Shown: positions 1,486 to 62,777 of the stretch, piece after piece
How positions within the stretch are numbered: the first letter of the stretch is position 1
Layout: each line of letters opens with the position of its first letter
DNA from: a bacterium
GTDB lineage: Bacteria > Patescibacteriota > Minisyncoccia > Phycocordibacterales > CALRBL01
DNA length: 64,000 nt
NCBI GenBank assembly: GCA_027487075.1
Contig: JAIYEG010000002.1
Location: forward strand, 79,202-143,201
Direction of reading: 5' to 3'
Position numbers and translations under genes: made by a program
Notes under the pieces: model-generated
Told to the model about the DNA's origin: nothing
Databases searched by the model: none
Seen by the model: the letters and a program-made list of their open reading frames with translations, nothing else

Positions 1486-1966
1486 TGTGCAAAATTAGAT
1501 CACTTGAGGCGAGGGGGGTGTTGGTGGCACTGGTGGTGACGATTTGAATAGTGGCTCTTCGAGAATTTGTATCATTACTTCCACCTGAGGTTACGATATT
1601 CGAGCTCCCATCACGTGATACGGCGCTCATCATAAATTTAATGGCGTACTGATCTCGAAATGCTATTGGGGTGGTAGTGGTAGCATAATTAGAGCCATTC
1701 CACGTGAGGTAGTATGCTGTGCCGTTTATAAGGGGGGCTATGTTTGAGGTCCATGATCTATCCCGAATCAGCTGGAGTGCTTCGCCAGCTTCTTCGGTGA
1801 GGAGGGCGGTACGCACAGTGATGGCACTTGCCGCAGCGAGTTTGATGTATTGATTCCATGCTGCTGACGCTGCGGTGATAACCACCGTAATAATAGACGC
1901 AGCGATAAGTATTTCTACCAGTCCAAAGCCTTTATCGTGTTTTGAAAAGAGTGTGCTCATGGTCAT
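1469..1966 (-). CDS. Type IV prepilin-like protein
   Basis: N-terminus ...HDKGFGLVEILIAASIITVVI is a prepilin peptidase motif plus a TM helix. Its ATGA overlaps the upstream gene. Confidence 0.8.
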   Translation of the reverse strand: MTMSTLFSKHDKGFGLVEILIAASIITVVITAASAAWNQYIKLAAASAITVRTALLTEEAGEALQLIRDRSWTSNIAPLINGTAYYLTWNGSNYATTTTPIAFRDQYAIKFMMSAVSRDGSSNIVTSGGSNDTNSRRATIQIVTTSATNTPLASSDLILHNVYSN

Positions 1967-2409
1967 GATGAGGTAATGGCTCCTAAATCAGTGATGGTAA
2001 TTGTTTTTGAAAGACCAGATGAAGTGTCGATAAGAATGGCCGTACCTGTGGCACTCGGTGTACCGTAGATACGTGAGAAGAGCACTGAGGTGGTGCTTGA
2101 AGCGAGGTTGCCAGAGAGTCTAAACCCTTGAAGAGAAGTGATGACCGTTCTTGAATCAGCAGCATTGTACGAGGTGCCTGCAAAATATGCATAGCTTGAG
2201 GTAGAAAATCGCACACCAGCAGGGTCACCATCCTTTCCAGAAATCGCATCCGCCTTTGCTCGTTCGATGGTGGCGACAAGTCTGTCACTTGCTGTATTTA
2301 GACGAGAAGTATTTCGTGCGTGGTAGAAGCCAATACTACTAATACCGCCAATGACAAGCATGATAGCGATAACGACAAGTATTTCACCGAGTGTAAATGC
2401 GCGGTTCAC
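1963..2409 (-). CDS. Type IV pilin / pseudopilin-like protein
   Basis: N-terminus MNRAFTLGEILVVIAIMLVIGGI has an AFTLGE motif with a conserved Glu+5 and a hydrophobic helix. First gene of the minus-strand pilin operon. Confidence 0.75.
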   Translation of the reverse strand: MNRAFTLGEILVVIAIMLVIGGISSIGFYHARNTSRLNTASDRLVATIERAKADAISGKDGDPAGVRFSTSSYAYFAGTSYNAADSRTVITSLQGFRLSGNLASSTTSVLFSRIYGTPSATGTAILIDTSSGLSKTITITDLGAITSS

Positions 2410-2792
2410 AAAAATATTGTACCACTCATATCAAAAAGTGGCTGTATTGACAAAACTTATTAAGTCTGCTAATTTGCATTTAGACCTCGTGCAATGGACT
2501 TACGCACTTGAGGCGTGATGTTACATGCTGTCTCCACTACGTTACTGCCCACAACGTACGAGCGTGTCCTAGACGCTCCAGCTCGCATCACTGCTCCTGG
2601 TGTAGGTCCCGCGACCCATGCCTGCACTAGGAGCCCACTTTCAAGAACGTGTGTACGTATTGTCACAGCCCGCTTTCGAGCGTCCGCTGAAGGCATCGAT
2701 CTGAGGTATGTTCGTGTGAATTCAAGGACGAGAGCTCAATCTCCTTGCTCGCGCCGCAACCCCAAAATATTCCGAACAGCTCATCGATCGGC

Positions 2793-2825
2793 GCGCCTCC
2801 CTGGTTAGGGAGGCGCTTTTTGTAT
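2793..2825 (+). terminator. Intrinsic terminator (GCGCCTCCC-tggtta-GGGAGGCGC + T5)
   Basis: Perfect 9-bp GC stem followed by tttttgtattttt. It closes an unassigned GC-rich transcription unit upstream of rnpB. Confidence 0.55.
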
Positions 2826-2844
2826 TTTTGTGGTATTGTGTGGC

Positions 2845-3190
2845 TCTGCGCCAGACAATCGCTCTCGCTTGCGAGGGAGGAAAGTCCGAACACAGCCAGC
2901 TTCGGCTGGAGCACGTAGCGGGTAACGCCCGTCTTGTCATATTCAAAAAGGGGCAAAGAGGTGCGAGCAGTGACGCTTGAAGCGAAAGCAGAGAGCATCC
3001 ATAGCAATGTGGATGAATCCATGTGGTAACACACGGAGTGAAACGGCAAAATCCTTACGTCTGTGCAAGGCCGTGTCCCACGAAGTAATTCGTGGTGAAG
3101 TGCCGCTCGAGGGTGTCAGCGATGACACTCCCAGATAAATGATTGTCACCACAGCAATGTGGCACAGAATTCGGCTTATCGGCGCAGGAC
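2845..3190 (+). ncRNA. rnpB: RNase P RNA (bacterial type A-like)
   Basis: Conserved blocks in native order: gggaggaaagtccg (CR-I GGAGGAAAGTCCGGGC), ggtaacgcc, ggagtgaaacgg, acagaattcggcttatcgg (ACAGAANCCGGCTTA). P1 pairs ctgcgcc (2846-2852) with ggcgcag (3181-3187). An extended -10 tgGTATTGT sits just upstream. The ORFs called across this region are spurious. Confidence 0.85.
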
Positions 3191-3197
3191 ATACATG

Positions 3198-3226
3198 AAA
3201 AACACCGCTTAACCGCGGTGTTTTTC
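3198..3226. terminator. Bidirectional intrinsic terminator after rnpB
   Basis: aaaaACACCGC-ttaacc-GCGGTGTttttt: a 7-bp stem flanked by an A-run and a T-run. Confidence 0.6.
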
Positions 3227-3676
3227 TGTTGCTTGACAAAAATTTAATCCGTCGTATCCTGAAAACAAGTGCGCTCTTTAAGAACTAGGTTTGCTGGTAC
3301 ACTGAAGTGCGCATTAGATGCAAAAGGTGGTAATTGATTGGCCTCTGCACCTGCAAGTCATGATATCCCAAGGGTGAATTCGGAATTCACAGGCAGCTTC
3401 CTTCATCAGTCGGAAGCTGATTCCACTATCCGTCATCACTTTCTGGCGCTGGTCACAGCCAAAACGAAAGGATGAAATGCCGAGTTTAACGTCAGTTACG
3501 GCAGCTCAGGGGAAGACCTGAGTACTTTTCAAGAACATGCGGAGCGTCCCGCCTTCAGTGATCACCATCACTGGAGATTATTGTTGCAAAATGCACACCG
3601 CGACAACGCCGCCGGCAGCGCCACCAACAGGTGGGCACAGAAATACGGCGCACAACATGATCGCGCGCACTGACCA

Positions 3677-3717
3677 TCAGCCGTCGTTCCCTCGGGAGCG
3701 GCGGCTGAATTTTTTTA
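3677..3717 (+). terminator. Intrinsic terminator / possible attenuator 40 nt upstream of leuS
   Basis: TCAGCCG...(inner stem gttcc-ctcg-ggagc)...CGGCTGA followed by atttttttt. It closes a roughly 470-nt GC-rich noncoding stretch. Confidence 0.6.
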
Positions 3718-3754
3718 TATAACAACCATTTCATGCTATGATTTTTTAACTTAT

Positions 3755-6622
3755 ATGACACGTCAATACGACCCGAAAGACATTGAACCCAAGTGGCAAA
3801 AAGCGTGGGAAAAGCAGGGAATTTACGCCACCAAGGAAACCGCGGACAAGCCGAAATACTATGTACTCGACATGTTTCCGTATCCGTCTGGCGAAGGGCT
3901 TCATGTGGGGCATCCCAAGGGCTACATTGCCACCGATGTGATCTCGCGTATGAAGCGTATGCAAGGCTTCAATGTACTCCACCCGATGGGGTTTGATGCA
4001 TTCGGTCTTCCAGCCGAGCAATATGCAATCAAGATGAAGACAAACCCTGCGGTAGCAGTGGAGAAAAACGTCGCACGCTACAAGAAGCAGCTTGAAATTC
4101 TTGGTTTTGATTACGATTGGTCACGTGAAGTGAATACCACCGATCCTAAATACTATAAATGGACGCAATGGATCTTTTTAAAATTGCTTGAAAAAGGTTT
4201 AGCAGAAGAACGCTATGAACCGATCAACTGGTGTCCTGTTGATAAGACCGGGCTTGCGAATGAAGATATTGAAGATGGAAAGTGTGAGCGCTGTGGTGCA
4301 GTGGTTGAAAAGCGCCTCATGAAGCAGTGGGTGCTTAAGATTACGCAGTATGCCGATCGCCTGCTCAGTGACCTCGATGCGAAAAAAGAAGACGGCACAC
4401 CACTTCTCGATTGGCCAGAGTCAATCAAGGAAAGCCAGCGAAACTGGATTGGAAGAAGTGAGGGGGCTGAGATTGATTTTAAGTTGATCGAAGCGGGATC
4501 TAAAAATGAAATCGCATGTGCGACGGTGTTCACAACACGAGCAGACACGCTTTTTGGTGTGACGTATGTGGTACTTGCTCCTGAACACTCTCTTGTTGCT
4601 GAACTTCTTGAAAAATCTTCGAATAAAAAAGAGATTGAGGCTTACATTAGTATGACAAAGGCTAAGACTGAAATTGATCGTACTGATACAACAAAAGAAA
4701 AGACTGGAGTAGAGCTTAAGGGTGTTCGAGCTATCAACCCAGCAAATAATGAAGAAGTTCCGGTGTGGATTGCTGATTACGTACTTGCAGATTATGGAAC
4801 AGGAGCAGTAATGGCGGTACCAGCGCACGATGAGCGTGATTTTGTATTTGCAAAGAAGTTTGCATTACCTATTAAGCATGTAGTGGCTCCATATCATATA
4901 CAAGGGGGTAAACATGTGCCACGTGAAGGCATTGAAACTCTTACACGCAGAACTGTCACAGTTATTCTTGAAAACAAGAAAAATGAAGTACTTATTATTG
5001 CTGAACCGGATACCACAACTCTTCTTGGTGGAGGAATCGAAGAAGGGGAGATGCCTACAGAAACTGCACTGCGCGAAATCAAAGAAGAAACAGGATATGC
5101 TGATGTTGAGGTAAAAGAAACCATTCTTGATAACTTCTTTGCAAAAGGATACCGATATACAAAAGGTAAAAATACTTTCACAAATGACTATATCATTCAT
5201 GCTGTATTAAAAAGTGATACACAAGAGAAAAGCGAGATTGATGAAGGTCGTCACCACATAAAATGGGTACCGAAAGAAAATGTACTTAATGAAATACCTC
5301 ACACACATAGTCACTATGAAATCTTCAAGTTATTTTTAAAACCTCATCATACCGGTGATGGATTACTTGTTAATTCATGTTCATTTGATGGAAAAAATTC
5401 ATCAGACGAAGTAAGAAAGGAAATTACCAAACACGTCGGGGGCCGATGGGTGACCAAGTACAAACTCCGCGACTGGGTGTTCTCACGTCAGCGTTATTGG
5501 GGTGAGCCAATTCCTGTGGTGCATGATGAAAATGGTTTGGTGATTCCCCTCAAAGAAGAGGATCTTCCGCTTGAACTTCCAATGGTAGAGCACTATGAGC
5601 CGACTGATACGGGAGAATCTCCGCTCGCTAACATTCCTGAATGGGCAGAGTTTGAAGTCGATGGCTACAAATTTAAACGAGAGACTAATACCATGCCGCA
5701 ATGGGCGGGTTCTTCGTGGTATTACCTCCGCTATATGGATCCGCATAATGACACGACGCTCGTCGACTCTGAAAAAGAAAAATACTGGAACTCAGTAGAC
5801 CTTTATGTGGGCGGTGCAGAGCATGCAACGCGCCACCTTATCTACGCACGCTTCTGGCACAAGTTCTTGTATGACATCGGTGTGGTATCAACCCTCGAAC
5901 CATTCACCAAACTTGCAAACCAAGGGCTTATCACTGCATCAGATGGTCGCAAAATGTCGAAGCGCTGGGGTAATGTGGTGAATCCTGATGAGATGGTAGA
6001 CACCTTCGGCGCTGATTCGATGCGCCTCTACGAGATGTTCATGGGTCCATTTGACCAAGCTATCGCGTGGAATACGAATGGGGTAGTGGGAACACGTCGC
6101 TTCATCGAAAAAGTATGGAAGCTCTCATCAAAAGTGACTCACGATGCACCGTCACATCCCGCGCTGCATCGCACCATCAAAAAAGTTTCTGAGGATATTG
6201 CCGGCATGAAGTTCAACACCGCGATTTCGTCTATGATGATCTTCGTGAATGATCTTGAGAAGGCTGCCTCGGTCTCATGTGCCGATATGGAAGCATTGCT
6301 CAAACTTCTCGCGCCATTTGCTCCTCATGTTGCGGAAGAGCTCTGGGAAGTGCTTGGCAATGAAGGAAGTATTCACCTTTCATCGTGGCCGACCTTCGAT
6401 ACTTCGAAGCTCGAGGAAGATGAGGTCACTATCGCTGTGCAAATCAACGGAAAGACACGCGAAACCATGCGTGTTGCCCGCAATCTTGACGAACAGGTGG
6501 TTGTAGACATGGCAAAGGGAAGTGAGGGGCTCAAAAAATGGATCAAAGAAGGTCAGATCAAGCGGGTGATCTGGGTCAAAAACCGCCTCCTCAACCTCAT
6601 AATTGACTTATCAGCAGAATAA
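3755..6622 (+). CDS. leuS: Leucyl-tRNA synthetase carrying an in-frame Nudix hydrolase domain insertion
   Basis: HIGH-region PYPSGEGLHVGHPKGY, zinc knuckle CERCGAVVE, editing domain (TTRADTLFGVTYVVLAPEH ... AVPAHDERDFVFAKKF), KLRDWVFSRQRYWGEPIP and KMSKRWGNVV. It is 955 aa versus roughly 860 typical. An extra segment of about 150 aa between the editing domain and the LRDW motif carries a canonical Nudix box GGGIEEGEMPTETALREIKEETGY. Confidence 0.95.
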   Translation: MTRQYDPKDIEPKWQKAWEKQGIYATKETADKPKYYVLDMFPYPSGEGLHVGHPKGYIATDVISRMKRMQGFNVLHPMGFDAFGLPAEQYAIKMKTNPAVAVEKNVARYKKQLEILGFDYDWSREVNTTDPKYYKWTQWIFLKLLEKGLAEERYEPINWCPVDKTGLANEDIEDGKCERCGAVVEKRLMKQWVLKITQYADRLLSDLDAKKEDGTPLLDWPESIKESQRNWIGRSEGAEIDFKLIEAGSKNEIACATVFTTRADTLFGVTYVVLAPEHSLVAELLEKSSNKKEIEAYISMTKAKTEIDRTDTTKEKTGVELKGVRAINPANNEEVPVWIADYVLADYGTGAVMAVPAHDERDFVFAKKFALPIKHVVAPYHIQGGKHVPREGIETLTRRTVTVILENKKNEVLIIAEPDTTTLLGGGIEEGEMPTETALREIKEETGYADVEVKETILDNFFAKGYRYTKGKNTFTNDYIIHAVLKSDTQEKSEIDEGRHHIKWVPKENVLNEIPHTHSHYEIFKLFLKPHHTGDGLLVNSCSFDGKNSSDEVRKEITKHVGGRWVTKYKLRDWVFSRQRYWGEPIPVVHDENGLVIPLKEEDLPLELPMVEHYEPTDTGESPLANIPEWAEFEVDGYKFKRETNTMPQWAGSSWYYLRYMDPHNDTTLVDSEKEKYWNSVDLYVGGAEHATRHLIYARFWHKFLYDIGVVSTLEPFTKLANQGLITASDGRKMSKRWGNVVNPDEMVDTFGADSMRLYEMFMGPFDQAIAWNTNGVVGTRRFIEKVWKLSSKVTHDAPSHPALHRTIKKVSEDIAGMKFNTAISSMMIFVNDLEKAASVSCADMEALLKLLAPFAPHVAEELWEVLGNEGSIHLSSWPTFDTSKLEEDEVTIAVQINGKTRETMRVARNLDEQVVVDMAKGSEGLKKWIKEGQIKRVIWVKNRLLNLIIDLSAE

Positions 6623-38091: not shown

Positions 38092-38120
38092 CCCCGCCCG
38101 CAAGGGCGGGGAATTTTATT
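38092..38120 (+). terminator. Intrinsic terminator (CCCCGCCC-gcaa-GGGCGGGG + aattttattt)
   Basis: Perfect 8-bp GC stem, GNRA loop and a T-run on the plus strand only. Overlaps the 3' end of the minus-strand toxin gene. Confidence 0.65.
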
Positions 38121-38505
38121 TATATAAGGAATGAAACTGTGCTTTTACTTTTTTAAAATCATTTCCATCAACTTGACCGAGGCGAGTAAAAAGTCTTCTG
38201 TAATCTATAGTTCGCACCCGGTGTAAACAAACCTTCATTTCTGTATTATCTAAAATTAATGGTACATACCATGATCCTTCTTTTATCTGAGTAGTCGTAG
38301 GCGCAACCAAGTAGAAACCACGAGCTAATTTCTTAAGAATCAAACCAGGTCTTGTATAAACAGAGCTTTTACCATTAATTTCAGAACCAATATTTTGACC
38401 AAAACTTATCCACCATATATCCCTTTCACTGACCAACGGAGGAGAAGCTTCGACTGAATGCAGTTTTACCTTTACTGCTATCCACTTTAAAAACACATCA
38501 ATCAT
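38116..38505 (-). CDS. MazF/PemK-family endoribonuclease toxin-like protein with no adjacent antitoxin gene
   Basis: ...ERDIWWISFGQNIGSEINGKSSVYTRPGLILKK...FYLVAPTTTQIKEGSWYVPLILDN...KVCLHRVRTIDYRRL matches the PemK/MazF pattern (RPxLVL, PxTS/T, IRTID.RRL). AT-rich. There is no upstream ORF on the same strand. Confidence 0.7.
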   Translation of the reverse strand: MIDVFLKWIAVKVKLHSVEASPPLVSERDIWWISFGQNIGSEINGKSSVYTRPGLILKKLARGFYLVAPTTTQIKEGSWYVPLILDNTEMKVCLHRVRTIDYRRLFTRLGQVDGNDFKKVKAQFHSLYK

Positions 38506-38541: not shown

Positions 38542-38843
38542 AATATATCTTCAGTTTATCCTAAATTTGGAGAAATAATCTCCTCATGTCAGGATATACA
38601 CGGAACCTCTTACGTGTGAGAGTAACACGTCGATAATCGACCTGAGCCACAATGTCGGCCGTATCTATAACGGTCCGGTGGAAGGAAGAGTCTGCGGCCT
38701 ATCAGCTAGTTGGTGTGACGTAGTAAGTAGCGTCGAGCGAAGATGACGTCGAGTCCAGGTTCACCTGGAGGAGGGTAAATGCCTACCAAGGCTATGACGG
38801 GTAGCGAGAACAGAAGATGAACTCGCCTCACACAAGGGAATCC
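38542..38843 (+). pseudogene. Orphan 16S rRNA 5'-domain-like fragment (E. coli positions about 8-330 equivalent) with a 58-nt insertion
   Basis: 16S blocks in native order: agtttatcct, gtgagagtaacacgt, gcggcctatcagctagttggtg, then the insertion, then ggtaaatgcctaccaaggctatgacgggtagc, then degenerate. Ends in its own terminator. No remainder of the SSU gene follows. Confidence 0.7.
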
Positions 38844-38878
38844 CGGCGGCGTGTCATGTACACGCCGCCGCTTTTTAT
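38844..38878 (+). terminator. Intrinsic terminator ending the 16S-like fragment
   Basis: cGGCGGCGTGT-catgt-ACACGCCGCCg + cttttt. Its T-run overlaps the stop codon of the convergent gene. Confidence 0.6.
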
Positions 38879-40116
38879 ATATTATTTCCCGCAACAAACC
38901 CCGTCGTCCAGCAGAGCTGCAGGCTGTACCCGCCGCTTGGCCTATCAATATTCAAAATATCTCCCACGAGGTAAAGATTCGGGAAGAACCGTGACTGCAT
39001 AGTCTTGAAATCTACTTCATCGAGCTTCACGCCGCCTGAGGTCACGATGGCCTGGTCTGTTCCTAAAAGTCCTTCTACATGAAGCGGGATATTCTTGAGC
39101 GTCTGGATGAGCTTGATGCGTTGTTCACGTGTGATATTGCTGTTGGTGGTATCAAGATCAATTCCTGAAAGCGTGAGTACCGGCTCGACGAGTGTCGAAA
39201 GTATGATCGTGCCAAGCGCATTCTTCAGCTTCTTTTTATTCTCTTTTGCAAAAAGTTCCATGAGCATCGTATTGATGCGGTCATGACCTTGGTTGGGAAG
39301 GAGATCGAGCCCGATCACCACCTCGCCATATTTCAACAGCTCGCCGACATCCTGGCTCATATTGAGCACCATCGGTCCAGAAACTCCGAAATGCGTGAAG
39401 AGTACACGCCCCGTCTTTTTGCTCACCGCGCTTTCTTGCTTCACGCCATTTTGAAACAGCGTCAGTCGGACCTCCTGAAGCGTCGCTCCTTGGAGTTTCT
39501 TGGTCCACTCATCTTTGAGTGCTACGGGCACGAGCACCGCTTGAGGCTCGATGACGGTGTGGCCGATCTGCTTCAACCATTCGAAACCATCACCCGTCGA
39601 TCCTGTTTCTGGCCGAGACTTTCCGCCGGTTGCCAGTACATATGATTTTGCCTTGAGGATTTCGCCGCCTTTGAGGGTGACACCTACGATCTCTGACCCT
39701 TCCTTAACAAACCCCGTCACCTCTGCATTTGAACGCACCTCGACGCTTTGCGATCGCATATATTCCACAAGTACATCCCACACCGACTGCGCTTTGTCCG
39801 TGACAGGGAAGACGCGTTTCTCGTTTTCCACTTTGGTCTCCATGTCGCGCAGATGAAAGAACTCAAGCGACTCCTTGACGCTGTATTGTGAGAATGCCGA
39901 GAACAGATACTTGCCATCATCCTTGAATTTGGCGAGGAGTGCGCGGTCATCGAACTCGGCATTAGTCACATTACAACGTCCGCCACCAGTGATGAGGAGT
40001 TTTTTGCCGAGAGTGTCATTTTTCTCGAGCAGCAACACCGAAAGGCCGCGCTCCGCAGCGCGTCCAGCTGCCATCATGCCCGATGGCCCGCCTCCGATGA
40101 CGATTACATCGTACAT
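38875..40116 (-). CDS. NAD(P)/FAD-dependent oxidoreductase, HI0933/BaiN family
   Basis: MYDVIVIGGGPSGMMAAGRAAERG dinucleotide-binding motif. Full-length HI0933-like layout ending ...GYSLQLCWTTGFVAG. Confidence 0.85.
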   Translation of the reverse strand: MYDVIVIGGGPSGMMAAGRAAERGLSVLLLEKNDTLGKKLLITGGGRCNVTNAEFDDRALLAKFKDDGKYLFSAFSQYSVKESLEFFHLRDMETKVENEKRVFPVTDKAQSVWDVLVEYMRSQSVEVRSNAEVTGFVKEGSEIVGVTLKGGEILKAKSYVLATGGKSRPETGSTGDGFEWLKQIGHTVIEPQAVLVPVALKDEWTKKLQGATLQEVRLTLFQNGVKQESAVSKKTGRVLFTHFGVSGPMVLNMSQDVGELLKYGEVVIGLDLLPNQGHDRINTMLMELFAKENKKKLKNALGTIILSTLVEPVLTLSGIDLDTTNSNITREQRIKLIQTLKNIPLHVEGLLGTDQAIVTSGGVKLDEVDFKTMQSRFFPNLYLVGDILNIDRPSGGYSLQLCWTTGFVAGNNI

Positions 40117-43366: not shown

Positions 43367-43367
43367 T

Positions 43368-44960
43368 ATGAAAACTGGAAAGGCTGAATCACTCGAACAA
43401 ATGAAGAAAGCCGGTTTCAATGTGCCTGATTTTTTTATTGTTGAGCAGAGGCCAACCAAAGAAACAAGTGACACATTTCTCGCCAAGTTTGACGCGCTTA
43501 AGACCAAAAGTGTTGCAGTACGATCTTCAACAAATGTTGAAGATGGGGAACATAATTCTTGGGCAGGGCAGTTCACTTCACACTTGAATGTGGCAAAAGA
43601 AAATCTTATTGAGAAAATAAATAGTTGTTTTGATTCAGTTCATACAACAAACGTTACATCATATAAAAATTCATTTGGTATAGAGAAGGAGATTAGTATG
43701 AATGTTATCGTTCAAAAAATGATTCATGCTGACTATGCAGGTGTAGCATTTTCAGTAAATCCGATAACTAAAAAATCTGATGTTTTAATTGAAGTTGTTA
43801 AAGGTACTGGTGAATCACTAGTTTCTGGCAAAGTAACCCCCCAAACATATCACATTGATAAGACAACTAAACAAATTGATATTGTTAGTAGTGATTCTTC
43901 AGATACCCTAAATTCATTTCCGATTTTACAACTATTTGAAATTATTTTAAAAATAGAATCATTTTATAACTTTCCGTGTGACATTGAATGGGCATACGAA
44001 AAAGATACTTTTTATATTCTCCAATGTCGCCCTATAACAACTATTAAGGACACTGACTTAATCGAAAGTTATATTGCAACACAAAGAATGATCTCACTCG
44101 GTACCCGAGGCCCTGATACACTTGAAGCAAAACTTAAAATAATGGGATGGTCAACAAATTTTAAGAAGGAGTTTGGGGTTGGTTACCGTACCATAGTTAT
44201 CAATTCTGAAGGTAAGCAATACGGTGATTTTGAGAGTCTTGAAAAGATTGATTTCTTTTTTGATAACAGGGATATTTCTTTTGCAAAAAAGTACATCAAG
44301 AAAATGTCAGATTTAAATAGCGACCTGAATGATAAAATATTAAGATTTCCTGATGAAGAATTTATTGAAGAACTTTCTTATCTTTTTACCTACTTTAGCG
44401 CAATTCGTTGGACAATAGAAAATGTTTACAAAAAATCTTCAGCAGAAGATAAAAAATTAATTGATGATTGGAGAAACGACGAAACTATATTTTCGTCACT
44501 GGAGTTATATGGAAAAGTTCACCCTCTTTCTGATCCAGATTCTTGGAGTGTAGTGGGAATCGATGACCAGATCACCATCTTACCAAAAGTAATTAACTGC
44601 GCCATTAAAAGTGAGGCATCCTCTTCTCATGAAATTAAGGGTCAGACAGCTTATCCCGGTATAATTTCTGGCACAGCAAGAGTTGCACTAACGGACGAAA
44701 TTAGAGATTCGATTAAAGAGGGAGATATTATTGTAGCACCGATGACAACGCTCGATTTTACCCACGCCATGTCAATTGCAGCAGGCTTTGTTACTGATGA
44801 AGGTGGAATTACCTGCCATGCGGCTATAGTTGCGAGAGAATTGAAGAAACCTTGCATCATTGGAACACGTAACGGTACTCAAATAATTAAGGATGGTGAC
44901 ATTGTTGAGCTTGATGCAACTAACGGAATTGTGAGAATACTTAATGTACCGGAAGCATAG
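43368..44960 (+). CDS. PEP-utilising phosphotransferase (PPDK_N ATP-grasp N-terminus plus PEP-utilisers swivel-His C-terminus, Rph/PEP-synthase-like architecture)
   Basis: N-terminus ...VAVRSSTNVEDGEHNSWAGQFTSHLNV...GVAFSVNPITKKSDVLIEVVKGTGESLVSGKVTP. C-terminus ...GGITCHAAIVARELKKPCIIGTRNG. An AT-rich middle domain of about 250 aa is unknown. The ATG is 2 nt after the ABC exporter stop. The ORF-track start at 43278 is over-extended. Confidence 0.7.
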   Translation: MKTGKAESLEQMKKAGFNVPDFFIVEQRPTKETSDTFLAKFDALKTKSVAVRSSTNVEDGEHNSWAGQFTSHLNVAKENLIEKINSCFDSVHTTNVTSYKNSFGIEKEISMNVIVQKMIHADYAGVAFSVNPITKKSDVLIEVVKGTGESLVSGKVTPQTYHIDKTTKQIDIVSSDSSDTLNSFPILQLFEIILKIESFYNFPCDIEWAYEKDTFYILQCRPITTIKDTDLIESYIATQRMISLGTRGPDTLEAKLKIMGWSTNFKKEFGVGYRTIVINSEGKQYGDFESLEKIDFFFDNRDISFAKKYIKKMSDLNSDLNDKILRFPDEEFIEELSYLFTYFSAIRWTIENVYKKSSAEDKKLIDDWRNDETIFSSLELYGKVHPLSDPDSWSVVGIDDQITILPKVINCAIKSEASSSHEIKGQTAYPGIISGTARVALTDEIRDSIKEGDIIVAPMTTLDFTHAMSIAAGFVTDEGGITCHAAIVARELKKPCIIGTRNGTQIIKDGDIVELDATNGIVRILNVPEA

Positions 44961-45009
44961 CATACTTGACCTCTGTAAGCAAATGTGACCTTTTTACGTC
45001 TATCGTTAT

Positions 45010-61446: not shown

Positions 61447-61804
61447 AGGAGTGATCCCACCTTACGTGCGATGACTGTTTTGTCCTGGAGATGAGTTTGA
61501 ATGGCGTTCGCACGAATGCCGGCTCTTTTCAGGAAACAACGTTAGTAATTAGCCTATCGATAAAGCGCAATGCAACTGAGTACCACTCAACACTGCCGCG
61601 GGTCCGATATCAGTATCGGACATCACCCCATCGTAACGACGGAGCCGTCCGTCCACTGAAAGGAGGTGATTTGATTCACTCAAAGGTAAGCGGCACACGC
61701 CCTCTCAACTGCGTGACCAAATACTGATGAGTAGACCGTGCGCAACGGACAACGGTCGTCCACGCGCTTAGGCCGGCGAGTTTAAACGGCTCGTCTCATT
61801 CCAA

Positions 61805-61850
61805 GCACCCGGATACATGTCTCATCGAGATGTGCCCGGGTGCTTTTTTA
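61805..61850 (+). terminator. Intrinsic terminator closing a roughly 400-nt structured noncoding region
   Basis: GCACCCGG...(inner imperfect hairpin)...CCGGGTGC + tttttt. Confidence 0.6.
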
Positions 61851-62398: not shown

Positions 62399-62689
62399 CA
62401 CCTAACAGTCTAGAACTTTCATGCTTGAAGAGTAGGGAAGAGTCCCCTGCTACTAAAGGCTAAAAAGTAAGACTTCGGTAAGTAGGCGAGTATACATCAA
62501 CGATGATTAAGAAACTATAAAAGTATGATGGATATTTTGCATTAGCAGAATTCATAAGAGCGCCAAAGGTATCAAAAAAAATACAGCTTTAGCAATACAG
62601 AATGTCGGGAGTAGCGTAGTATAGTGTGTCGCAAAAGATACATTGTGCGACATCATATATGCCGCTCCCCTAGGAGTTATCCACAGTCA

Positions 62690-62730
62690 ATAAATAAAAA
62701 ACTGGCGTGGATTTCTCCACGCCAGTTGAT
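62690..62730. terminator. Bidirectional terminator
   Basis: aaaaaaCTGGCGTGGA-tttc-TCCACGCCAGttgatt, a 10-bp stem with a T-run on the minus strand. Confidence 0.6.
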
Positions 62731-62777
62731 TAATCTGCCCTCCTTCCTATTAAAATTTAATTGAGAAATGTTGCAGC

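Follow-up and report, generated by a model that had tools for sequence, protein, structure and literature searches.

Two candidate structured small RNA genes flanking rnpB in the genome of an uncultured patescibacterium

Organization of the rnpB–leuS locus

The DNA analysed here, referred to as the window, is a 64,000-nucleotide (nt) stretch of contig JAIYEG010000002.1 (assembly GCA_027487075.1, forward-strand positions 79,202 to 143,201). It derives from an uncultured member of the Patescibacteria (Candidate Phyla Radiation, CPR; Paceibacteria-like) and has a G+C fraction (GC) of 0.448. Within it, a gap of 1345 nt separates a minus-strand pilin-like operon, whose start codon lies at 2409, from the ATG of leuS (encoding leucyl-tRNA synthetase, LeuRS) at 3755. 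Three tightly packed plus-strand modules fill this gap: a non-coding unit of about 340 nt (unit 1), the RNase P RNA gene rnpB, and a second non-coding unit of about 450 nt (unit 2), the two units being separate from each other. Both units have a promoter-body-terminator layout, lack a coding signal, are predicted to fold as strongly as rnpB and match no known RNA family. We tentatively favor reading them as two independent, lineage-specific structured small RNA (sRNA) genes, a reading that we would not yet call probable; their transcription and a function of the resulting RNAs are suggested by the sequence features described below. To our knowledge almost nothing is known about regulatory RNAs in the Patescibacteria, organisms with small genomes whose known RNAs are often divergent, and a full-text literature search found nothing on RNAs flanking rnpB in the CPR.

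Unit 1 begins with a promoter-like site at 2447–2475 (+), identified by sequence reading and by a scan, in which a −35 element TTGACA (2447–2452) is followed after 14 nt by an extended −10 element TGcTAATTT (2467–2475). Transcription from this site would start near position 2482. The non-coding body (2482–2792, about 310 nt, GC 0.55) contains no open reading frame (ORF) with a dicodon score above −0.41 and has a well-defined predicted 5′ domain at 2506–2646, which includes a 15-bp hairpin with three G-U pairs (2593–2634). Further hairpins are predicted at 2672–2694 and 2710–2777, with helix probabilities of 0.88–0.99 across the unit. The module ends in an intrinsic terminator at 2793–2825, a 10-bp stem (eight G-C pairs; 2793–2816) of the form GCGCCTCCCT-GGTT-AGGGAGGCGC followed by the T run TTTTTGTATTTTT, with a pair probability of 0.99.

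The gene rnpB follows directly. A promoter-like extended −10 site, TGgTATTGT, can be read at 2831–2839 (+), and its counterpart in the related locus L082 is TGgTATTTT. The RNA itself, a complete bacterial type A RNase P RNA, occupies 2843–3194 (+; RF00010, 119.1 bits, E = 7e-36), and the match spans model positions 1–367 without truncation. The original prediction had named an extension of the rnpB boundaries into the flanking DNA as one way in which the units might dissolve. This does not happen: the match is complete within 2843–3194 and the P1 stem closes at 2846–2852/3181–3187, leaving both flanks outside. A feature absent from that prediction is rnpB's own intrinsic terminator at 3197–3231 (+), a fully complementary 12-bp hairpin (3197–3226) of the form GAAAAACACCGC-TTAACC-GCGGTGTTTTTC. 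Terminators therefore set rnpB apart from both units.

Six nt past the rnpB terminator begins the top-scoring promoter-like site of the region 1900–4000, TTGACA-16 nt-TATCCT at 3233–3260 (+; 10 of 12 matches), from which transcription of unit 2 would start near 3267. The non-coding body of unit 2 (3267–3676, about 410 nt) has a GC of 0.51 that rises to 0.585 at its 3′ end, and its ORFs have dicodon scores of −0.39 or lower. It is predicted to form a string of hairpins at 3394–3419, 3433–3475, 3479–3502, 3504–3523, 3553–3576 and 3618–3636, with helix probabilities of 0.85–1.00. The unit ends at an intrinsic terminator (3677–3717, +; probability 0.99) with a 14-bp stem at 3677–3708, TCAGCCGTCGTTCC-CTCG-GGAGCGGCGGCTGA, and then a run of seven T residues within ATTTTTTT. 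The leuS ATG follows 38 nt after the end of the T run, close to the 40 nt first reported. Between the two, as read from the sequence, lies a promoter-like extended −10 site of leuS, TGcTATGAT (3734–3742), 12 nt before the ATG (3734–3757 together, +).

The first description of the locus, made from the sequence alone, had proposed two structured non-coding units that each end in a terminator, and had described them as far more GC-rich than their surroundings. The two units and their terminators are borne out, with the addition of a promoter-like site at each 5′ edge, and the inverted repeats quoted at the time are present (CAGCTTCC...GGAAGCTG at 3394–3419 and CGCGCCG...CGGCGCG at about 2750/2790). 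The GC enrichment holds up, but it is moderate: against the window value of 0.448 the bodies have 0.55 and 0.51, with 200-nt peaks of 0.565–0.585, and other intergenic gaps in the window range from 0.36 to 0.49.

Signals for starting and stopping transcription are concentrated in this region. Between 1900 and 4000 there are eight terminator-like sites, compared with 2.0 ± 1.6 in shuffled sequence, and seven promoter-like sites where about two are expected from shuffles; the plus-strand intrinsic terminators number three, one each for unit 1, rnpB and unit 2. Across both strands of the whole window (128 kb), 12 sites reach at least 10 of 12 promoter matches and only six combine a −35 element with an extended −10 element, and several of the other such sites lie at true gene starts. 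The sequence TTGACAAAA occurs in only two copies in the window, at the 5′ starts of units 1 and 2, and only a few nt separate each unit's promoter-like site from the terminator or divergent promoter before it. Of the features expected of a generic bacterial sRNA gene, both units have a putative 5′ promoter, a 3′ intrinsic terminator and, as judged by dicodon scores and protein searches, no protein-coding capacity.

The divergent promoter is that of the pilin-like gene, whose extended −10 element TGgTACAAT (2424–2416, minus strand) lies 6 nt ahead of a GTG start codon. Extended −10 elements (TGnTAnnnT) placed 6–15 nt before a start codon, with no Shine-Dalgarno sequence, are frequent in the genes of this lineage. 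Such short-leader sites occur in the window at 2407–2424 (−), 2831–2839 and 3734–3757, and upstream of leuS in the related loci L081–L083, L106 and L107. This arrangement suggests that the lineage may use leaderless or very-short-leader mRNAs, including that of the GTG-start pilin-like gene.

Predicted folding of the two units

We scored folding as a z value relative to shuffled sequence, with terminators removed from the unit bodies. The unit 1 body has a z of −2.5 on the plus strand and 0.0 on the minus strand, the unit 2 body −3.4 and −2.9, and rnpB −2.5 and −3.4, respectively. Twenty-four random control windows, mostly coding and taken from 4–60 kb, gave a plus-strand mean of +0.26 (standard deviation 1.1) and a minimum of −2.07. 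The signal is strongest in two sub-domains, 2506–2646 of unit 1 (plus-strand z −4.2, with the minimum free energy structure making up 9% of the ensemble) and the central domain 3392–3525 of unit 2 (plus-strand z −4.4), and in both of them helix probabilities are 0.85–1.0. The strand asymmetry of unit 1 arises because of the three G-U pairs in the hairpin at 2593–2634. Folding predicted on the plus strand only, together with these G-U pairs, would fit a fold of the RNA better than a palindromic DNA element.

Comparison with related genomes

We identified nine syntenic relatives through their LeuRS proteins, which are about 67–77% identical to that of the window (L081–L083, L085, L087–L089, L106 and L107). 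The best LeuRS relatives are all metagenome-assembled genomes of Patescibacteria, and the exact LeuRS sequence occurs on just one NCBI contig, of 153 kb. In full-length comparison the nearest other LeuRS is only about 76–77% identical, and the comparison is therefore one without a close relative of the source organism. In all nine relatives rnpB lies directly upstream of leuS and a gene for a sigma-like protein of 342–356 amino acids (aa) directly downstream of it. DUF8128 and yceG are kept in the eight relatives whose contigs reach further, seven of which reach mnmA, and ychF lies 0.4–2.5 kb upstream of rnpB in five of the nine. The flanks of rnpB are thus the variable part of a conserved block, ychF-rnpB-leuS-sigma-DUF8128-yceG-mnmA.

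What occupies these flanks differs from one relative to the next. L082 has 168 nt upstream of rnpB and 93 nt between rnpB and leuS, and L106, whose contig starts inside rnpB, has about 90 nt between the two genes. A DUF378 gene lies between rnpB and leuS in L081, L088 and L107, and ORFs of 164–185 aa are found there in L085 and L089, with an additional ORF of about 70 aa in L085. Upstream of rnpB, L081 and L107 have terminator-ended non-coding stretches with a GC of 0.47–0.57. Two of these lie at 4760–5227 of L081, the second with a TTGACA promoter, and a counterpart lies at 1–200 of L107; they show no significant similarity to the window units or to each other. In L082 a long near-perfect inverted repeat, GATGGGCATCTTAGCCGATTT...AAATCGGCTAAGATGCCCATC (5511–5578), stands between the terminator of the upstream gene and the rnpB promoter.

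The rnpB gene of the window is about 72–80% identical to those of the relatives. In most of the close relatives (L081, L083, L085 and L087–L089) rnpB scores below the Rfam gathering threshold (in L081, 82.5 compared with 100 bits). RNase P RNAs from the CPR have been found before to score under model thresholds (PMC8172020), and the low scores in the relatives agree with these published divergent RNAs.

Searches of 80 Patescibacteria genome loci and the nine relatives with blastn (word size 7), nhmmer and tblastx returned only rnpB matches. A scan of metagenomes with a motif pair gave 16 matches, approximately the chance expectation, none of them similar beyond the pattern itself. Three ideas about the origin of the units were rejected. 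Mobile or foreign origin found no support in plasmid, phage, viral or metagenome sequences, and no terminal inverted repeats were found around the units. Paralogy of units 1 and 2 was raised by collinear short matches (GCTGnnTCCACTA, TTTCAAGAACRTG and GAGCGTCC), and their alignment scores, local and gapped, fall within the range of dinucleotide shuffles. Finally, a by-eye likeness (GGCACAGAA..CGGCGCA..ACAT) that might mark unit 2 as a displaced 3′ end of rnpB, left as an integration scar, is not significant.

Interpretation of the units

If the units are sRNA genes, each would be transcribed on the rnpB strand, starting at a sigma-70-type promoter of its own and stopping at its own strong intrinsic terminator, with neither being part of rnpB or a leader of leuS. 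By analogy with other orphan bacterial sRNAs, the RNAs might act in trans, by base-pairing or by binding protein. Orphan sRNA genes restricted to a species or genus are the known system that the units most resemble in layout: they stand alone in intergenic DNA on one strand, begin at a promoter-like site, form stable hairpins, contain no ORF, end in a Rho-independent terminator and are phylogenetically narrow in range. At 340–450 nt the units are longer than most base-pairing sRNAs (50–250 nt), and with no homologue found they do not as yet constitute a family.

Several results weigh against a functional reading. Searches with blastn, nhmmer and tblastx detected nothing similar to either unit in the nine syntenic relatives. 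When the two best-defined unit domains were turned into single-sequence covariance models (R1 and R2) and run over 1.18 Mb of Patescibacteria loci, the models recovered only themselves. Plasmid and phage sequences gave no match to the units in distant-mode blastn, and exact searches with 20–24-mers gave no match in viral contigs (20-mers, both units) and none in metagenome contigs (a 24-mer of unit 2, the one unit searched there). The stretches upstream of rnpB in L081 and L107 have no excess plus-strand folding (z of −1.8, −0.1 and +0.8). Several other non-coding gaps in the window are, moreover, as structured as the units, so that a negative z is not unique to them; these gaps were scored with their terminators and two contain small ORFs, and their z values are therefore not strictly comparable with those of the units. 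The negative fold z is supportive rather than decisive.

Conservation with covariation, the mark of a structured RNA family, is missing, as no homologue was found in the searched sets. The original prediction had stated that it would fall if there were no transcript, no conservation and no covariance-model match; the latter two are indeed lacking. Since no homologue was found, the units are orphans, and the case for function is carried by their internal signals only. The absence of homologues weakens the functional reading, although many genuine sRNAs would already be unrecognizable at a distance corresponding to about 76% LeuRS identity.

The alternative that survives best is that the units are DNA without function in a slot with fast turnover, namely remnants of insertions or of decayed sequence (earlier small genes, foreign DNA or pieces of RNA genes) that keep, or by chance carry, a promoter and a terminator, and that any transcripts are idle. 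We consider this unlikely, while giving it real weight. The flanks of rnpB are variable in an otherwise conserved block, and in the relatives they hold a DUF378 gene, small ORFs, unrelated non-coding DNA or almost nothing. There is a gene-order breakpoint at unit 1, where the opposite-strand pilin-like operon replaces the plus-strand genes found ahead of rnpB in all relatives whose upstream sequence is long enough. An insertion elsewhere in the window (38590–38880, described below) contains a degenerate 16S fragment and shows that debris of RNA genes does insert in this genome, and no search made returned a homologue of either unit. Other properties of the units are harder to reconcile with debris. 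Decaying DNA usually drifts towards AT, whereas the units are GC-richer than the genome. Their promoter and terminator signals are intact and tightly packed against the neighboring signals. They retain no residual similarity to the genes that fill the same slots in the relatives (best tblastx E = 0.05) or to any protein. Lastly, their fold z equals that of rnpB, and in unit 1 it is strand-asymmetric.

A bolder extension of the sRNA reading would make the units founders of new, fast-evolving classes of structured RNA of 340–450 nt in this Paceibacteria-like lineage. They might then belong to a genome-wide set of GC-rich, terminator-ended RNA modules between conserved genes, among them the 16S-like RNA beside an antitoxin-less MazF-like gene, and might act on RNA-processing enzymes such as RNase P or MazF, either as decoys or in a regulatory role. 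It would surprise us if this proved correct.

If the two units are transcribed and functional sRNA genes, they would count as some of the first candidates for trans-acting RNAs in the Patescibacteria, and the flanks of rnpB would be a place in which new RNA genes originate or become inserted. If the units are debris, even streamlined CPR genomes would put up with about 1 kb of structured but useless sequence on the two sides of an essential RNA gene. We regard the finding as a lead rather than a discovery.

Known RNA families and the possibility of a leuS leader

We ran cmscan over the whole window at gathering thresholds, where rnpB was the only RNA returned, and then over 2300–3800 with lax filters and a cut-off of E ≤ 10 against the full set of 4227 Rfam families. 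The second search returned only rnpB and chance-level matches on the terminators. Transfer-messenger RNA (tmRNA), signal recognition particle (SRP) RNA and 6S RNA had been listed as candidates from the sequence alone, with this search as the proposed check, and none of their models matched.

Closer reading of the units is equally negative. For tmRNA, ARAGORN reported no gene in the window, and neither a T-loop or T-arm nor a 3′ CCA context can be read in the units; the sole frame ending in YALEA-stop lies at the extreme 5′ end of unit 1, the wrong place for a tmRNA tag. For SRP RNA, RF00169 and RF01854 gave no match at E ≤ 10 and no domain IV loops were seen, the GGAA-containing hairpin at 3504–3523 being a plain 7-bp stem without the internal loops of SRP domain IV. 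For 6S RNA, RF00013 gave no match at E ≤ 10 and no rod with a central bubble was seen; the predicted folds of the units are multi-branched and the units measure 340–450 nt, unlike the 6S rod of about 180–200 nt. The genes for these three RNAs (ssrA, ffs and ssrS) do resemble the units in standing alone, in specifying a structured RNA of roughly comparable size and, in many cases, in carrying a promoter and a terminator of their own. They differ from the units, which have no model or ARAGORN match, none of the defining motifs or folds and no conservation in relatives. Similarly, the large structured non-coding RNAs of unknown function in Rfam (OLE, GOLLD, HEARO, ROOL, raiA and others) are, like the units, GC-rich, multi-hairpin, intergenic and several hundred nt long, but the units match none of them at E ≤ 10 and lack the broad conservation and the covariation on which the definition of such families is based.

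One of the units might still be a highly divergent housekeeping RNA (a tmRNA, SRP RNA, 6S RNA or other RNA-polymerase-binding RNA) beyond the reach of standard models. We hold this to be very improbable. Its attractions are that 340 and 450 nt fall in the size range of tmRNA, that RNase P RNAs of CPR bacteria escape thresholds (PMC8172020), as the 82.5-bit rnpB of L081 does, and that tmRNA, SRP RNA and 6S RNA were not found elsewhere in the 64-kb window. The window, however, is only part of the genome, and the true genes may lie elsewhere. No tmRNA, SRP or 6S model matches even at E ≤ 10 over 1.5 kb, ARAGORN is empty, and there is no T-arm, CCA, well-placed tag frame, SRP domain IV loop or 6S rod. 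A housekeeping RNA would also be expected to be conserved among relatives in which rnpB is about 72–80% identical, yet nothing similar exists at the locus or in the searched DNA.

A leader or attenuator of leuS, also proposed for unit 2 at the outset, would act in cis through conditional termination at 3677–3717, and we regard it as a highly improbable explanation. Unit 2 does lie on the leuS strand and ends 38 nt before that gene. The motif GCCGCCG at 3610–3616 could, as read from the sequence, pair with the 3′ arm of the terminator, and three consecutive leucine codons occur at about 3577–3585. T-box and other leaders of aminoacyl-tRNA synthetase genes are similarly found on the same strand upstream of the synthetase gene with a terminator at their end. 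But no T-box was seen on reading, neither RF00230 nor any other leader model matched at E ≤ 10, the short frame with the leucine codons has no ATG or Shine-Dalgarno sequence, and the terminator is a very stable, GC-rich 14-bp stem with a pair probability of 0.99. As the promoter-like extended −10 site of leuS lies after the unit 2 terminator, the leuS transcript would have a very short leader or none, and its transcription would be independent of unit 2. The same promoter-then-ATG layout is present in relatives that lack unit 2, where there is no leader at all.

Coding potential

Coding potential was assessed with a dicodon model trained on the 34 long genes of the window. All ORFs in 2400–3760 score between −0.79 and −0.04, compared with 0.3–0.7 for real genes and a mean of −0.43 for wrong-frame ORFs inside genes. 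The ORFs called over the units had been suspected to be spurious from the start, and their scores all fall in the spurious range. We also joined all six-frame translation segments of 30 aa or more from the two units into a 988-aa query, and against 5.8 billion proteins it gave no match at E ≤ 1. A 97-aa ORF of unit 1, searched exhaustively with HMMER against 1.84 billion representatives, gave three weak matches, to long proteins matching in multiple stretches. Of these the top match alone was inspected; it is an Ig-like repeat protein, which we rejected as a homologue because its score is summed across repeats. A tblastx comparison of the units with the small genes filling the same slots in the relatives gave noise (best E as above).

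That the units encode small proteins (the 97-aa ORF at 2515–2808 in unit 1, and a 22-aa frame at 3270 or a 30-aa hydrophobic minus-strand frame at 3578–3670 in unit 2) can scarcely be credited: the 97-aa ORF does span unit 1 from just past the putative transcription start, with a GAGG motif, into the terminator, but its dicodon score of −0.41 is in the middle of the spurious distribution, its product is 16% arginine with almost no lysine, glutamate or aspartate, unlike this proteome, neither protein set yielded a homologue except for the weak repeat-protein match, and ORFs of similar length occur on the opposite strand, as expected in GC-rich sequence.

Other RNA-like segments and features of the window

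An isolated GC-rich unit at 38590–38880 (+) ends in a strong terminator (38844–38870). Its segment 38618–38829 aligns to positions 106–311 of bacterial 16S rRNA (26.2 bits, E = 7.6e-6); the alignment includes internal deletions and an insertion of 64 nt. The unit lies between an HI0933-like gene and a divergent, lone PemK/MazF-like toxin gene (38116–38505, −; PF02452, E = 6.5e-11), and no MazE-like ORF is present between the unit and the toxin gene. The MazF-like protein is also encoded in a Logan (SRA) assembly, so that this organism or a near-identical strain has been sampled twice. The HI0933-like and PemK genes are 30 nt apart in L108, and the 38590–38880 unit is therefore an insertion. 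It could be an rRNA-mimic decoy, an RNA antitoxin or merely a 16S pseudogene fragment, and this 16S-like fragment beside a MazF-like gene may be a more interesting lead than the rnpB flanks. In L109 (3030–3374) and L110 (648–992) a PemK/MazF-like gene is followed by a gene of PF05635 ('23S rRNA intervening sequence protein'), and this adjacency is another link of the MazF-like protein to rRNA-related elements.

Two further structured segments have no Rfam match. The first, at 61447–61850 (+), is about 400 nt of non-coding DNA (GC 0.52) directly after the stop codon of an asparagine-synthase-like (asnB-like) gene; it has a strong terminator at about 61808–61846, fold z values of −3.45 (+) and −1.2 (−), and a perfect long Shine-Dalgarno-like sequence, AAAGGAGGTGAT, at about 61660–61671. 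The second, at 62400–62740, is AT-rich and non-coding, and its fold z is the lowest of the window (−6.75 on the plus strand, −4.6 on the minus strand). It contains a long hairpin at about 62606–62672 and a plus-strand hairpin at about 62701–62732 that is preceded by an A run and followed by a T-rich tail. Together with units 1 and 2, the units at 38590–38880 and 61447–61850 show that this genome has acquired several lineage-specific RNA-like insertions, which fits either a set of RNA genes without families or debris of RNA genes.

A 1.6-kb AT-rich stretch (43367–45009, GC 0.36) has no convincing ORF, the best being a minus-strand frame of 69 aa with a marginal coding score, and ARAGORN found no tRNA genes in the window. 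The LeuRS encoded at 3755–6622 carries a NUDIX domain (residues 397–526; PF00293, E = 8.8e-16) inserted past the editing domain. This insertion is missing in the closest LeuRS relatives (about 72–77% identical) and present in more distant ones (about 62–71%). It occurs in many Patescibacteria LeuRS proteins, some of which have extra HAD or alpha/beta-hydrolase domains.

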